A stretch of DNA of 64,000 bases. It comes from Candidatus Dormiibacterota bacterium (GTDB taxonomy: Bacteria; Chloroflexota; Dormibacteria; Aeolococcales; Bog-877). This document shows positions 55,714 through 63,492 of this stretch, piece by piece (position 1 is the stretch's first letter; the number at the start of each line of letters is the position of its first letter). Location of the stretch: contig DAHVMY010000004.1 in NCBI GenBank assembly GCA_027319585.1, positions 1,427-65,426 on the forward strand, written 5' to 3'. Below the pieces are notes generated by a model, which worked only from the letters and a program-made list of their open reading frames with translations, had not been told where the DNA came from and did no database searches. A program made the translations under genes and the position numbers.

Positions 55714-55802
55714 GCTCTCACCTCGAAGCGATCTTAGTGGCCGGCGGCCGGGATGCGCCAGAGCACCGTCCCAGCCACAGACCCGTGCGCCACAATGGGG
55801 CG

Positions 55803-56615
55803 ATGGACCAGCGGGTCGGATATCAGGGGGAACCCGGGGCCAACTCCGACGAGGCGGCGCGCCAGCTCTTCCCCGGCGCCGACACCGTGGGTCTGCCGAC
55901 CTTCGCCGCGGTCTTCACAGCTGTGGCCAGGGGGGATTTGCAGTTTGCGGTCCTGCCCGTGGAGAACAGCCGCGCGGGGGTCGTGCAGGAGGTTAGCGAT
56001 CAGCTCTGGGCCCACCCGGAGCTGACTGTGGTCAGCGAACGAGTGGCTCCCATCCGTCACCATCTGCTCGCCGCCGACCACCAGCCGGTGGAGCGGGCCC
56101 TTTCCCACCCCCAGGCCCTGGCCCAGTGTGCGAACTGGTTAAGCGCCCACGGGATAGCGGGCATCCCGCATCCGGACACGGCTGGCGCGGCCCGCCAGGT
56201 GGCCCAGAGCAGGGTGGACGGGGAGGGAGCGATCGCATCACTCACCGCCGCCCGACTGTACGGGCTGGTGGTGGTGGCGGAGGACATCGCCGACGAGCCG
56301 TCCAACCAGACCCGTTTCGTGGTGGTCACCGCCCGCGCCGCTACCGGAGGGCCGATTCCTGGGAGGGCCAAGGTGTCAATGGGCCTGATCGCCCCCCATC
56401 GCCCCGGGGGGCTGGTCCGGGTGCTGGAGGTCTTCGCTGACCTGGAGCTGAACCTGACCCGGTTGGATGCCCGCCCCATACCGGACCTGCCCTTTCACTA
56501 CCGCTTCTACCTGGATGCCGAGCTCGAGCAGGCGGGCCAGGTGGACCTGCTGCTGCCCCGGTTGGCCTCCGTCAGCCAGGAGCTTCGGCTCTTCGGGATC
56601 TATCCCCTAACCTGA
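55803..56615 (+). CDS. pheA: Prephenate dehydratase
   Basis: [29 protein letters not shown] and C-terminal ACT domain; CACAAT 6 nt before the ATG. Confidence 0.92.
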
Positions 56616-58324
56616 GCGGGCGAGAGCTCCTCGGCGAGGACCGCGCCGCGGGCGGAACTCCCGACCAGCTGGGCGTATCTGGCGAAGACCCCGCGCCGCT
56701 TCGGCACTTCCGGGGCGCGCCAGAGCCGACGTCGGCGCTCCCACTCCGCCTCCGGAACAGCGGCGGATACGGTCCGAGCGTCGACATCGATGGTGATCTG
56801 ATCGCCATCGCGCACCAGCGCGATCGGCCCCCCCACGGCGGCCTCGGGAGCGATGTGACCGATCATCAGCCCATGGGTTGCGCCCGAGAAGCGGCCGTCG
56901 GTCAGCAGGGCCACGCTGTCCCCGAGGCCCTGGCCAACCAGCGCCCCGGTCACGCCCAGCATCTCGCGCATGCCCGGGCCGCCGCGCGGACCCTCGTAGC
57001 GGATCACCACCACGTCGCCGGGGACGATTGACCTGGCGGACACCGCCGCCATCGCCGCCTCCTCGGAGTCGAAGACCCGCGCGGGCCCGGTGTGCTGGCG
57101 CCAGGTGTGCCCCGCCACCTTGACCACCGAGCCCTCCGGGGCGAGCTGCCCGTGGAGAATGGCCATGCCTCCGCTTGCGCTGAGCGCCTCCCCGACCCGC
57201 CGAACCACGTCCTGGCCATCGGTCTCGGGCCAGGTGTCGGCAGCGGCGGCCGCCTGGTCTTCCAGGCTGGAGCCGGTGCAGGTCTGGGCCGAGCCCGCCA
57301 CCGAGCCGTGCTCCAGCAACCGGCGCACCAGCAGCGCCACACCGCCGGCACGTGTCAGGTCGACGGCGTTGTAGCGGCCGCCGGGACGGAGGTCGGCCAG
57401 CCAGGGGGTGCGTTGACTCACGGCGTCGAAATCGTCGATCTGCAGCGGGATTCCGGCCTCGGTCGCGATTGCCAGCAGATGCAGCACCGCATTGGTCGAG
57501 CCCCCACTTGCCATCACCCCCGCGATCGCGTTCAGGAACGACTCCCGCGAGAGGTAGGTGCTGGGCCGCCGACCCCTGGCGACCATCTCCACCACCAAGC
57601 GGCCCACCTCGGCGGCGGCTTCGGGCTTGCCGGGATCGGTCGCTGGGATGCCCCCCAGCTGAAGTGGCGAAATGCCCAGCAGTTCGATGGCCATGGCCAT
57701 GGTGTTGGCGGTGAACTGGCCCCCGCAGGCGCCGGCCCCGGGGCAGGCGACGTCCTCCAACTGCCGGAGCTCGTCATCGCTGATGCGCCCGGCCTCGGCG
57801 GCCCCGATCGCCTCAAACACGTCGATCACCGTCACGTCCCGGCCCCGGAAGCGGCCGGGCTGAATGGAGCCGCCGTAGAGCAGGCAGCCGGGGAGGTCCA
57901 GCCGACACAGGGCCATGGCCGCGCCGGGGATGGTCTTGTCGCAGCCGACCAGCGCCACCACGCCATCCAGAAGATGGCCCCGGCAGACGAGCTCGATCGA
58001 GTCGGCGATGACCTCCCGGCTGATCAAGGACGCCTTCATGCCCTGGGTGCCCATGGCCACCCCGTCGGAGACCGCGATGGTGTTGAACTCCATCGGCGTG
58101 CCGCCGGCTTCCCGGATCCCGCGCTTGACGTGCTCCGCCAGCCGCCGCAGACCGAGGTTGCACGGCATGGTCTCGATCCAGGTGTTGGCGACCCCGATCA
58201 GGGGGCGGGACAGGTCGGAGTCCGTATAGCCGGCTCCCTTGAGCATCGCCCGAGCGGCAGCCCGCTCGCGGCCGACCACCAGGGCGCGACTCGGAAGCGC
58301 GTTCGCCTGCGTGGCTGGCTTCAT
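56600..58324 (-). CDS. ilvD: Dihydroxy-acid dehydratase
   Basis: [30 protein letters not shown] and DGRFSG motifs. Confidence 0.96.
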
Positions 58325-58448
58325 CTTGATTCGTCCTCAAACTGAACTTGAGCTGCCCGGGTGGCGGCCCTGCCGATGGCGTGAAACCATAGCAAGCCGC
58401 CCCGCGCCGCTGCGAGGCCCCGCGGCGGGCACGCCTTGGCACCCAAGC

Positions 58449-58477
58449 TTGACAGCGCTGCCAGGGGCTGGTATACC
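58449..58477 (+). promoter_or_regulatory. Sigma70-type promoter of the ilv-leu operon
   Basis: TTGACA-N17-TATACC with an extended -10 TG. Confidence 0.85.
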
Positions 58478-58508
58478 TGTCGGCAACTTGAACGCGCACC
58501 CCGCCGCC

Positions 58509-58571
58509 ATGCTGACTCGTGAGAGCTCCTTCGCTCTAGTAGGCCTAATTTCAGGAGGGCTGGTCAGCTAA
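58509..58571 (+). CDS. ilv-leu attenuator leader peptide (MLTRESSFALVGLISGGLVS)
   Basis: 20 codons with 4 Leu, 2 Val and 1 Ile, including AT-rich CTA GTA GGC CTA ATT; overlaps the antiterminator. Confidence 0.75.
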   Translation: MLTRESSFALVGLISGGLVS

Positions 58572-58596
58572 AGGCTGCGCATCCGCACTTAGCTGC

Positions 58597-58629
58597 AAGC
58601 CCCCCGGTCACCACCGGGGGGCTTTTTTT
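58597..58629 (+). terminator. Attenuator intrinsic terminator
   Basis: AAGCCCCCCGG-TCACCA-CCGGGGGGCTT followed by a T-run. Confidence 0.92.
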
Positions 58630-58685
58630 GTTTTCCGAACCCATCTCCATCGCTGTTCGACCGAGCAACCACCAGGAGGCCAATC

Positions 58686-58874
58686 ATGTCCGCACCTCGC
58701 GATATCCCCGGCACCGAAGGCCCGTCTCCGTTCGCGTTCCCGCCTGACATCGAGCTCGACGAGGCGGCGCGCAACTGGGTGCGCCACCACCACGAACACG
58801 CCCGCCCGATGCGGCAGATGGCCGCCGACGCGGCGGTGACGTCCGCCATCGGCAGGGCCTACGGTCAGGGCTGA
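58686..58874 (+). CDS. Unknown 62-aa protein, first gene after the attenuator
   Basis: AGGAGG RBS 6 nt before the ATG; GC-typical codons; HHHEH motif; stop 10 nt before ilvB. Confidence 0.7.
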   Translation: MSAPRDIPGTEGPSPFAFPPDIELDEAARNWVRHHHEHARPMRQMAADAAVTSAIGRAYGQG

Positions 58875-58884
58875 GAGTCCGGCG

Positions 58885-60615
58885 ATGAGCGCAACCGCCC
58901 TGCTTGGCTTCGAAGACCGACCCGTCGAGCCCGCCCGCGCTAGCCGCTGCGGCGCGGAGATCCTTCTGCAGGCACTGGAAGCCGAGGGGGTCGAGGTCAT
59001 CTTCGGGCTGCCGGGAGGCGCCAACCTGCCGATCTACCAGCACCTGCCCAGCTCACCGATCCGGCACATCCTGGTTCGCCACGAGCAGGGGGCGGCGCAC
59101 ATGGCCGACGGCTACGCTCGTACCAGCGGCCGGGTGGGAGTCTGTCTGGCGACCTCGGGACCCGGGGCCCTCAACCTGGTGACCGGGTTGGCGACCGCGC
59201 ACTTCGACTCCGTGCCCGTGGTGGCGATCACGGGGCAGGTCGCCACCGCCACGATCGGCACCGACGCCTTCCAGGAGTCGGACGTCATCGGCTCGACCAT
59301 GTCGGTCACCAAGCACAGCTACCAGGTGCAGGACGCGCGCGACCTCTACGCGGTGGTCCGCGAAGCCTTCCAGGTGGCGCGCACCGGCAGACCCGGGGCG
59401 GTCTTGATCGACGTGCCCAAGGACGTGCAGCAACAGGTGGTCGAGGGCGACTCGGCGGAGATCACCCGGCTTCGACCCCACCGGGAGCCTCCTCCTCCCG
59501 CCCCGGAGCTGCTCGACCGGGCGGCCCAGTGGCTGGCGGGGGCCCACCGGCCCGTGATTCTGGCGGGCAGGGGGGTAGCGATCTCCCGAGCCGAGGCGGC
59601 GCTGCTCGAGCTCGCCCAGCAGATCGACGCACCTGTGGGGACCACGCTGCTCGGCACCGGGGTCTTCCCGGCCGACCATCCCCTCGCCCTGGGGCTGGTC
59701 GGGTTCATGGGGACCGGGTACTGCAATCTGGCGGTGAGCAACTGCGATTCCCTCCTGATGGTGGGCATGCGCGCGGACGACCGGGTCACCTGCCGGCTGG
59801 ATCAGTTCGCGCCACGCGCGCGCCACATCATCCACGTGAACATCGACCCGGCCGAGCTGGGCAAGACCGTCGCCGCAGACTGCCAGATCGCCGCCGACGC
59901 AACCTGGACCATTCGCGCCCTGGCTGGGAGAGTGCCGCCGCGCCGGCACCCCCGATGGCGCGCCCAGATCCGGGCCTGGCGTGATCGCCACCCCTTGCGA
60001 TACCCGAACAACGGCAAGCTCCAGCCCCAGGAGGTCCTGGCCGCCTGCTACGCCCGCCGCCACCCGTCCGACGTCGTGGTGGCGGACGTCGGGCTGAACC
60101 AAATCTGGGCCGCCACGGCCTGGACCGGTGACCGGGCGGGCACCTTCCTCAACTCCGGTGGCGCGGGCACCATGGGCTTCGCCCTCCCGGCCGCGCTCGG
60201 GGCGCAGGCGGCCGCCCCCGACCGCAGGGTCTGGGCAATCTGCGGCGAGGGGGGCTTCGTCATGACCCTGCAGGAGCTGGCGACGGCCGTGGAGGCGCGG
60301 TTGCCGGTCAAGGTGGTGATCCTCAACAACGGCCAGCTCGGCATGGTGCGCCAGTTCCAGGACGACTTCTACGGCGGCATCCGCTCCGCGGTCGCCCATT
60401 CGGTCGTTCCCGACTTCCGGCTGTTGGCCTCCGCCTTCGGCTGCTTCAGCGCCACCGTGACCTGCAGCGGCGAGCTGGACGACGCCCTCGGCTCAGCGCT
60501 CGAACACCCGGGACCGGCGCTGGTCGAGTGCCGGATCGACCCCGAGGCCGGCGTGTACCCCATAGTCCCCTTCGGCAAAGGTCTTGCCGGTTTCGTGGAG
60601 TGCCCGGTCGGGTGA
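58885..60615 (+). CDS. ilvB: Acetolactate synthase large subunit
   Basis: FGLPGG, RHEQGA, TSGPGA, DVPKD, GTMGF and LNNGQLGMVRQ motifs. Confidence 0.95.
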   Translation: MSATALLGFEDRPVEPARASRCGAEILLQALEAEGVEVIFGLPGGANLPIYQHLPSSPIRHILVRHEQGAAHMADGYARTSGRVGVCLATSGPGALNLVTGLATAHFDSVPVVAITGQVATATIGTDAFQESDVIGSTMSVTKHSYQVQDARDLYAVVREAFQVARTGRPGAVLIDVPKDVQQQVVEGDSAEITRLRPHREPPPPAPELLDRAAQWLAGAHRPVILAGRGVAISRAEAALLELAQQIDAPVGTTLLGTGVFPADHPLALGLVGFMGTGYCNLAVSNCDSLLMVGMRADDRVTCRLDQFAPRARHIIHVNIDPAELGKTVAADCQIAADATWTIRALAGRVPPRRHPRWRAQIRAWRDRHPLRYPNNGKLQPQEVLAACYARRHPSDVVVADVGLNQIWAATAWTGDRAGTFLNSGGAGTMGFALPAALGAQAAAPDRRVWAICGEGGFVMTLQELATAVEARLPVKVVILNNGQLGMVRQFQDDFYGGIRSAVAHSVVPDFRLLASAFGCFSATVTCSGELDDALGSALEHPGPALVECRIDPEAGVYPIVPFGKGLAGFVECPVG

Positions 60616-61186
60616 CTTCATGCAATTCGGACCAGTGCCGTCCCACCTCCTTGGCGGCGAACCCCAGCCAGCCGTGGCGGCTGGTCATGGTCCAGGCCGA
60701 GGACCGCAGCGGGATCCTGCAGCGGGTCACCAACTGCCTTGCCCGCCGCGGCTTCCAGCTGTTCAGCTGCACGGTTGGCCAGGGTCCGACGGACGGCCTG
60801 CTCACTCTCTGGCTGCGGGTCGGGACCGGCCCGCAGCCAGTGGACCAGGTCACCAAGCAGCTCGCCAAGCTCATCGACGTGGTCAGCGTCGAGGACATGA
60901 CCGCGCGGGCGCCGGTGCAATGGACGACCGCGCTGGTGGAGATTCGGCGAAGTGGTGACGAGCACGACCTTGAGGCGGCGCTGAACCACCCCGGGGTCCA
61001 GGTCGTGCGCCATCTCGAGAGCTCGGTGCTGGCGGCGATCGGCGGCCCGCCGGAGCAGGTCGAGGAGATCCTGGCCCGCATTCGCCGGCTGCCGGTCATC
61101 GACTGGGTGGTGGGACGCCCGCTGGCGCTTGGGGAACACCGGGCGGTGGCGAGCGCCGCGCCGAGCAATCAAGTGATGAGTGGGAG

Positions 61187-61190
<4 letters not shown>
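60612..61190 (+). CDS. ilvN: Acetolactate synthase small regulatory subunit
   Basis: [10 protein letters not shown]...RRGF ACT domain and [11 protein letters not shown]; GTGA overlap with ilvB. Confidence 0.88.
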
Positions 61191-62253
<1,063 letters not shown>

Positions 62254-62257
<4 letters not shown>

Positions 62258-63492
62258 GCACCGACCGCGGCACCTCCGCCGGGCTCGACAACGCGTCGAG
62301 CCCGGCCATCGTGGATGTGGTCCAGTTCTTCGACACCACCCTGCGCGACGGCGAGCAGGCTCCGGGGGCGACCCTGCACCTGGAGGACAAGGTGGCGGTC
62401 GCGCATCAGCTGGCGCGGCTGCGCGTTGACGTGATAGAAGCCGGTTTCCCGGCCTCCTCGCCCGGGGACTTTGAGGCGGTCCAGCGGATCGCCAGAGAGG
62501 TGGAGGGGCCCGCGGTCACGGGTTTGGCCCGGGCCCATCGCGGGGACATACTCGCGGTCCACCAAGCGGTGCGGGACGCGCAAAGGCCGCTGATCCACGT
62601 CTTCATCGCGGTCTCGGACATCCACATCGAGAAGAAATTGGGGCTGGACCGCGCCGAGGTGCTGAGGCGGACCCACGACGCCGTGGCCTACGCCCGAGAT
62701 CTCTGTGCCGAGGTTCAGTTCTCGCCTGAGGATGCCGGCAGGGCCGACCGGGAGTTCCTGTGTCAGGTGGTCGAGACCGCGGTGGCGGCCGGCGCGTCGG
62801 TGGTCAACATCCCCGACACCACCGGTTATTGCCTGCCTGCGGAATTCGCCGAGCTGGTCACGACGGTGCGCCAGCAGGTGCGGGGCATGGAACAGGTGCT
62901 GGTCAGTGTGCACTGCCACGACGACCTGGGCCTGGCCACGGCCAACTCCCTGGCGGGGGTGGCCGCCGGCGCCCGCCGGGTGGAGGGGTGCGTCAACGGG
63001 CTGGGGGAGCGAGCGGGCAACGCGGCCTTGGAGGAGATCCTCATGGCACTCCGGGTGCGCCGGCCCGAGCTCCACCTGGCGGACAACCTGGTGGCTCAGG
63101 AGGTGGGTCCCACCAGCCGCCTGGTGTCCAAGCTGACCGGGATCCCGGTGCCTCCGAACAAGCCGGTGGTGGGCAGCAACGCCTTCGCGCACGCGTCCGG
63201 AGTCCATCAGCACGGGGTGCTCAAGGACCGCAGCACCTACGAGATCATGACCGCGGAGGAGGTGGGTGCAGGGGCGACCCAGATCGTGCTCACGGCCAGG
63301 TCCGGCCGCCATGCCCTCGTTCATCGCCTCGAACTGATCGGGCTCAGGGTGCCGGACAGCCAGATGCCCCGGGTATGGGCCCGCTTCCTGGAGGTGGCGG
63401 ACACCAGCAAGGAGGTGGGGGACGATGCTCTCTTGCGAATCGTGGGTGAGGTTGGCCACCTGAATCCGGAGTTGGGAGCGATCGCCGGGTGA
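62254..63492 (+). CDS. leuA: 2-isopropylmalate synthase, short form
   Basis: [30 protein letters not shown] and HASGVHQ motifs; ends at 412 aa. Confidence 0.9.

Follow-up and report, generated by a model that had tools for sequence, protein, structure and literature searches.

Anatomy of the attenuated ilvB operon

The window analyzed here is a stretch of 64,000 nucleotides from a Candidatus Dormiibacterota genome (contig DAHVMY010000004.1). Near its end lies a branched-chain amino acid (BCAA) operon in the order small gene, ilvB-ilvN-ilvC-leuA'-leuB-leuC, preceded by an attenuator. The features referred to below are as follows, in window coordinates.

55737-56615: pheA, prephenate dehydratase, whose end lies 16 nt inside the convergent ilvD
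56600-58324, minus strand: ilvD, divergent from the ilvB operon
58449-58477, plus strand: likely sigma-70-type promoter upstream of the leader (sequence reading)
58509-58571, plus strand: attenuator leader peptide, 20 codons, MLTRESSFALVGLISGGLVS and stop (ORF listing and relatives)
58597-58634, plus strand: intrinsic terminator with a 12-bp GC-rich stem, 4-nt loop, and T-run (hairpin prediction)
58674-58679, plus strand: Shine-Dalgarno (SD) sequence of the small gene, AGGAGG, with a 6-nt spacer to the ATG at 58686
58686-58874, plus strand: small protein gene, 62 codons and TGA (ORF listing and comparative data)
58686-58736, plus strand: N-terminal tail of the small protein, residues 1-17, predicted to be disordered (pLDDT <60)
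58737-58871, plus strand: conserved core of the small protein, residues 18-62 (44-residue core; alignment, pN/pS, and AF2)
58785-58799, plus strand: HHHEH run, an unconserved stretch (residues 34-38) that closes helix 1 and extends into the loop (alignment)
58872-58887, plus strand: stop-to-start junction TGAgagtccggcgATG, a putative termination-reinitiation site (short gap and weak ilvB SD)
58885-60615, plus strand: ilvB, large subunit of acetohydroxyacid synthase (AHAS), the cistron after the small gene (Pfam TPP_enzyme_N/M/C)
About 60690-61190: IlvN, 166 aa, with an ACT domain (Pfam)
62254-63492: LeuA-like synthase, 412 aa, HMGL-like/HCS_D2 without LeuA_dimer, between ilvC and leuB (Pfam)

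IlvC and LeuB were identified from their translations. LeuC lies on the contig beyond the window, and its gene is cut off by the contig end. In Pfam, IlvN matched through its N-terminal ACT domain only; its C-terminal half gave no ALS_ss_C match even at E values up to 1. The intergenic stretch at 58325-58450 is common to ilvD and the ilvB operon.

The likely promoter consists of TTGACA at 58449-58454, a 17-nt spacer, and an extended -10 element, TGgTATACC, at 58469-58477. A consensus promoter scan left this site unflagged because the -10 ends in C, and the TTGACA...ctggtatacc block is retained 5' of the leader in most relatives. The leader peptide begins about 25 nt past the likely transcription start, with no visible SD. 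Its regulatory codons, CTA GTA GGC CTA ATT, are rare for a genome so rich in G+C, and they are retained, together with the motif (A/V)LV(x)LI(x)GG(L/P)(V/I)S and the stop that follows it, in at least 15 relatives. Both leader peptide and terminator are also conserved 5' of the small gene in relatives. The 5' arm of the terminator, without the 3' arm, pairs with leader segment GGAGGGCUGG, which would make a possible antiterminator, with a fold z-score that is not significant. An Rfam search of 58000-59200 returned no match near the gathering score, so this region is not a known riboswitch or T-box.

The small gene starts 52 nt past the terminator T-run and encodes a product of 62 residues, MSAPRDIPGTEGPSPFAFPPDIELDEAARNWVRHHHEHARPMRQMAADAAVTSAIGRAYGQG. 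Its TGA stop occupies 58872-58874 and the ilvB ATG begins at 58885, leaving a gap of 10 nt. The preliminary description of this locus had placed the ORF between the attenuator terminator and ilvB, with an AGGAGG ribosome-binding site and a 10-nt gap, and our reading agrees to the base. Since the small gene is the first cistron behind the attenuator, it is expected to be co-regulated with BCAA synthesis, as had been proposed. We rejected the idea that the 62-codon ORF is itself an attenuator leader peptide of the ilvL/ivbL/leuL type, as it lies 3' of the terminator and has an ordinary content of Leu, Ile, and Val.

Distribution of the small gene and selection on its product

A 62-codon open frame is uninformative on its own, because spurious, overlapping ORFs arise by the dozen in DNA of about 70% G+C. 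What marks this one as a gene is comparison with relatives. Within one Dormibacteria family, 35 of the 43 genomes sampled encode homologues (59-66 aa), every one of which is preceded by a ribosome-binding site; the homologues include the syntenic copies upstream of ilvB that the preliminary description had suggested looking for. Of 24 genomes of the family searched in six frames, 20 (from six genera) gave the gene, as against none of 16 from the sister family. In a class-wide sample of 301 genomes, it was present in 32 of the 38 within the family; elsewhere there were two borderline matches only (E ~0.001), both inside long ORFs. In four other families of the class, these searches found essentially no copy of the small gene.

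In the protein database, the small protein is represented by 11 clusters (59-64 aa), of which four are titled “hypothetical protein” from Candidatus Dormibacteria/Dormibacteraeota MAGs and another bears the label Acidimicrobiales. When 1.84 billion representatives were searched exhaustively with a profile, about eight clusters came up, a few of them additional (63-66 aa), and the rest was repeat-protein noise; no fusion of the small protein to a known domain was found among these representatives. Literature searches gave no report of the protein.

Each homologue has a GGAGG-type SD properly spaced from a start codon that gives a product of 59-66 aa. Over the core (residues 18-62), pN/pS is 0.08-0.47 in frame, compared with 0.86 to >11 in the other two plus-strand frames, and third codon positions are twice as variable as first and second positions. 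Coding conservation in relatives, on which the earlier proposal depended, is therefore both present and frame-specific. In the 17 N-terminal residues, pN approximates pS (0.43-0.81) in all pairs, and this segment is unconstrained. The G+C content by codon position is 0.73/0.56/0.87 for the small gene and 0.73/0.51/0.90 for ilvB, with similar values for ilvC and leuA. Judged by these comparisons, the small gene is real, conserved, syntenic, and under selection, and it is very probably translated.

The gene lies directly 5' of ilvB in about 17 fetched loci, with ilvD usually divergent on the other side, and coordinate lists agree for the remainder: wherever ilvB shares a contig with the small gene, the small gene is immediately upstream. 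Among 44 family genomes, 35 have both genes, two have ilvB only, one has the small gene only, and six, including a single-contig genome, have neither; these counts overstate independence because the genomes are relatives. Both genomes with ilvB only belong to genus g4, in which an open frame persists at the site with decayed sequence. The joint loss of ilvB and the small gene could be simple deletion of adjacent DNA. No ilvB orthologue was found in G155 (the single-contig genome), G009, G190, G209, G214, G304, or G011, where the fetched TPP enzymes are only about 30% identical. This suggests repeated AHAS loss, and perhaps BCAA auxotrophy, within the family.

The preliminary description also connected the small gene to the short LeuA of the operon. 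The first part of that argument stands: the 412-aa synthase has no LeuA_dimer domain, and the domain was not found anywhere in the 86%-complete genome to which the window belongs. It is present in 26 of 43 family genomes. One of these, G004 of the same genus (L060, G004:C60), carries behind the small gene the genes ilvB-ilvN-ilvC-leuB and then leuC, with a synthase frame of 554 aa between leuB and leuC that spans a LeuA_dimer match. Because relatives with full-length LeuA/CimA keep the small gene, it is not tied to the short synthase, and this second part of the argument fails. Operon layout varies within the genus: the window genome has its short synthase between ilvC and leuB and none between leuB and leuC, unlike G004, which has no gene between ilvC and leuB.

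The protein core, the junction with ilvB, and copies away from ilvB

Ten positions are invariant in 22 sequences: D21, L24, E26, N30, R43, A46, A47, D48, A49, and I55. They fall within two conserved blocks, the first reading [F/Y/L]P-x-D-[I/V]-x-L-[D/S/G/N]-E-[A/G]-[A/G]-R-N-W-V and the second R-P-x-R-x-x-A-A-D-A-A-[V/I/L]-T-[S/A]-A-I-x-x-[A/V]-Y. From the alignment of 22 sequences, AF2 predicts an extended FPxD(I/V)xL stretch, a helix at residues 26-35 (EAARNWVRHH), a loop at 36-41, and a second helix at 42-60 (MRQMAADAAVTSAIGRAYG), at moderate confidence (pLDDT 69, pTM 0.46). A shallower alignment of 11 sequences gave one long helix instead. Foldseek searches with both models found no similar solved structure in the PDB. 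The protein is acidic, with a pI of 4.2-6.2 and a net charge of -1 to -6 in 20 of 21 homologues. In the model, the Ala-rich helix face and the invariant polar residues would suit close helix-to-helix packing against a partner protein.

Pfam, NCBIfam, PADLOC, PHROGs, and PDB sequence profiles gave no usable family match for the protein and its 22 homologues, which bears out the earlier remark that this is not a canonical ilv/leu gene. Two faint matches were treated as chance: XF1762, which is sub-threshold (E 0.015), and YsdD, which was matched by one homologue below the gathering score over 17 residues. Identity as an AHAS regulatory subunit (IlvN/IlvH/IlvM) was rejected, as Pfam and NCBIfam detect no ACT domain and the operon has a separate ACT-domain IlvN. 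A type II antitoxin or defence component was likewise rejected, since the neighbours are the attenuator and ilvB and there is no PADLOC or PHROG match at E <0.1. The small protein is a family-restricted orphan with no family or fold match.

The preliminary description took the His cluster to be part of a functional, for example metal-binding, core, and here the alignment disagrees. The counterparts of HHHEH in homologues include RHHQEH, RHHPEK, HLHREH, RQHTASAA, SRQSAADP, RRRHAAEP, and RNNAA. Since this segment sits in a variable loop, is the least conserved stretch of the core, and has between zero and six His per homologue, a conserved metal site is unsupported. By sequence comparison, the His run is a lineage-specific loop decoration and not the functional core.

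At the junction with ilvB, the two ribosome-binding sites differ in predicted strength. SD-antiSD pairing for the small gene is -10.3 kcal/mol in the window and between -7 and -11.5 for 19 of the 21 homologues, compared with -3.1 kcal/mol for ilvB in the window (range -1.9 to -7.7). The weak ilvB SD is partly built from the small-gene stop, TGAG(A)GG. From stop to start, the distance is -4 to 13 nt in 19 relatives, being 5-13 nt in most and an overlap in one. A stop-to-start spacing of 10-11 nt has been reported as optimal or enriched for reinitiation past leader genes (PMC4833913). This is the anatomy of coupled cistrons, with a short or overlapping stop-to-start distance and a weak downstream SD. 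With an ilvB SD this weak and so near the stop, translational coupling appears likely, and most translation of ilvB probably comes from ribosomes that have just finished the small gene and reinitiated.

In two genera of the sister family, the same position is filled by something else. There, an unrelated ORF rich in Arg and Gly, of 73 codons in L026 (1205-1426) and 79 in L027 (2439-2678), stands between a BCAA leader with its terminator and ilvB; it has an AGGAGG, and its TGA overlaps the ilvB GTG (GTGA). A search found no conservation of this ORF, which is undetectable beyond its own genome. A faint AD..V..AI...[YF] pattern at its C-terminus, seen by eye only, was not relied on as a sign of homology. 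Two other sister genera (L028 and L029) have, in place of the attenuator, a T-box-like leader, recognized by eye from its GGGUGGUACCGCG box; the extra ORF is missing there and the ilvB SD is strong. The recurrence of a translated cistron between attenuator and ilvB therefore points towards a role in cis. Given the decayed g4 ORF and the unconserved sequence of the sister-family ORF, the cis role may be older or more general than the trans role.

A paralogue of the small gene (P0009/P0010) stands away from ilvB (L044 6655-9755; L056 4550-7711). A promoter-like site, a leader peptide (LVRLI.GGL.S), and a terminator of its own precede it. Behind it come 600-740 nt of DNA that is not conserved, an SBP_bac_5 peptide-binding gene, which has a separate ribosome-binding site, and an M24 Xaa-Pro aminopeptidase. 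The arrangement is syntenic in two lineages, between which the core has a pS of 0.49 and a pN of 0.075. Because the paralogue is under selection with no coupled gene behind it, the protein itself appears to be functional. The paralogue locus may be an amino-acid-scavenging locus under BCAA control. Other loci are weaker pointers to an ilvB-independent role. In G011 (~90% complete), where no ilvB orthologue was found, a separately promoted pheA is preceded by the attenuator, the small gene, and, between them, a degenerate Zn-ribbon ORF. In L048 and G019, the small gene sits beside truncated ilvB remnants.

The Zn-ribbon ORF is a basic CxxC...CxxC protein of 64-80 aa (pI 9-10.3) with the sequence HPHRAPARS-ECVSCHxHFLTRAGSRxLLCxxCR, encoded between terminator and small gene in 8 of 44 family genomes. 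Examples are found in L016 (G016:C47:5744-5983), L048 (1555-1749), L011, L020, and L018, and the G011 copy lacks one Cys. The ORF always overlaps the start of the small gene (GTGA/ATGA). In the search of the 44 family genomes, it was never found elsewhere, nor was it found in the window genome or its genus.

Possible function and comparison with known systems

The reading we favor, and hold to be somewhat probable overall, is that of a family-restricted gene behind an attenuator with two roles, serving in cis as a ribosome entry point for ilvB and in trans through a protein that binds another protein. Because the gene sits directly behind a Leu/Val/Ile attenuator, the small protein would be made only upon terminator read-through. 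A short supply of charged branched-chain tRNAs would cause this read-through, and with it expression of the small gene. In cis, ribosomes would load onto the read-through transcript at the strong ribosome-binding site of the small gene, and on finishing that gene would reinitiate at ilvB with its weak SD. In trans, the acidic 44-residue helix-loop-helix core, with its Ala-rich second helix and disordered tail, would bind another protein. The invariant polar residues D21, E26, N30, R43, and D48 support a function in trans, and the most probable mode of action is binding to another protein.

Coupling, protein binding, and partner identity are what we infer here from sequence: the small protein would bind its partner during BCAA shortage, and that partner is possibly AHAS (IlvB/IlvN), which is encoded directly downstream. 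AHAS is the leading candidate, though a tentative one. The idea is weakened by the paralogue, which does not adjoin ilvB, and by G011, in which no ilvB orthologue was found. A wider form of the proposal is similarly speculative. The small protein could be an attenuator-driven signal, accompanied in some lineages by the overlapping Zn-ribbon protein, that retunes either AHAS feedback or a broader starvation response, including the peptide-uptake/aminopeptidase locus of the paralogue; the module would then be mobile and independent of ilvB.

Of the alternatives, the one that survives best is that the protein is a trans regulator induced by BCAA shortage whose target is not AHAS but a regulatory factor or a translation or transcription factor, with the Zn-ribbon protein as a companion in some lineages. 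Attenuator and small gene persist away from an intact ilvB three times (the paralogue, G011, and L048/G019), and the overlap with the Zn-ribbon ORF occurs in those eight genomes and nowhere else. However, the six genomes without ilvB also have no small gene, which is a better fit to an ilvB-linked role, no Zn-ribbon gene was found in the window genome or its genus, and the loci with ilvB remnants may be transient stages of decay. We consider this reading rather unlikely.

Less likely still is a purely cis role, in which the ORF is a translated spacer that loads ribosomes for ilvB, perhaps also shielding the transcript from Rho, and the peptide has no function. Such a spacer would suit the sister family, whose slot holds a non-homologous, fast-evolving Arg/Gly-rich ORF with its GTGA overlap onto ilvB, as well as the two g4 genomes, which retain an open frame around a decayed sequence. 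The weak ilvB SD and the short gaps agree with it too, given that reinitiation past leader genes has been described (PMC4833913). A functionless peptide does not account for frame-specific purifying selection on 44 residues in six genera or for invariant polar residues, and the paralogue, which has its own attenuator and no close downstream gene, still shows the low pN relative to pS given above.

The remaining readings are all very improbable. A nascent arrest peptide of the TnaC/SecM type, stalling the ribosome to control reinitiation at ilvB, would be in line with the conserved C-terminal half, the invariant Trp-containing motif, and the stop that adjoins the ilvB start. The last two to four residues vary, though (GQG, GAD, GSD, TDW, YA, QAG), conservation spans 44 residues with helix-capping and amphipathic patterns, and the paralogue has no coupled gene to control. 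A ribbon-helix-helix (RHH)-like DNA-binding autoregulator of the operon is suggested by the predicted extended segment, helix, loop, and helix (residues 20-60), whose order would be compatible with the RHH topology and size. Against it, the 22 members have no RHH Pfam match at E up to 10, no PDB sequence-profile or Foldseek match was found, and the strand residues that would face DNA are D21 (invariant), E23, and D25, in a protein that is acidic. Least credible of all is metal binding through the HHHEH cluster, which has in its favor four His within five residues in the window genome and three to six His in six of the eight ilvB-adjacent copies from the same genus, but against it only zero to two His in other genera, a segment that is the most variable in the core and changes in length as well, and no Cys or conserved ligands besides acidic residues.

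Annotation systematically misses small proteins, and their regulatory context is seldom clear. The small gene has a defined induction signal, the BCAA attenuator, and a probable translational link to the first pathway enzyme. It also comes with a natural comparison set, in which the gene is present, decayed, replaced by a non-homologous ORF, absent behind a T-box, or copied as a stand-alone paralogue. With it, one can readily ask why operons under attenuation place a translated cistron ahead of the first enzyme, and whether cistrons of this type may evolve into working proteins. The significance would be smaller if the protein merely fine-tunes AHAS in one uncultured family.

Several known systems resemble parts of this arrangement. 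In E. coli, ilvX is a small ORF of about 16 codons between the ilvL attenuator and ilvG. It is likewise a small translated ORF between a BCAA attenuator and the first AHAS gene, but it is far shorter than the small gene, and homology is implausible. We know of no conservation or function of ilvX comparable to the 44-residue core. It has been listed among translationally repressed genes (PMC7815308). The AHAS subunits IlvN, IlvH, and IlvM are also small and co-translated with the catalytic subunit, but they are ACT-domain proteins, unlike the small protein. In Bacillus subtilis, anti-TRAP (rtpA) is a 53-aa Zn-binding protein under T-box and leader-peptide control that reports uncharged tRNA-Trp. 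The small protein may be its parallel, in that synthesis would report amino-acid or tRNA shortage and action would be by protein binding. The two have no sequence or fold relation, and anti-TRAP, as a Cys-rich Zn-binder, is closer to the Zn-ribbon ORF of the relatives.

Leader-peptide attenuators of ilvB operons have been described in Corynebacterium, as the ilvBNC uORF/ilvB-II motif (PMC10272879), and among actinobacterial leaders (PMC1262725). The window has the same device at 58509-58634, with a BCAA-rich leader and a terminator before ilvB. The small gene differs in being a second ORF of 62 codons past the terminator, with a conserved protein sequence and no enrichment of regulatory codons. 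The closest comparison is reinitiation past leader genes (Korolev et al. 2016, PMC4833913), which has the same spacing of about 10 nt, a weak downstream SD, and a strong upstream SD. Leader genes of this kind are generally thought not to encode stable proteins, whereas the small gene is under selection at the protein level. The arrangement is thus a variant of the post-leader coupling ORF, and not a new kind of system.
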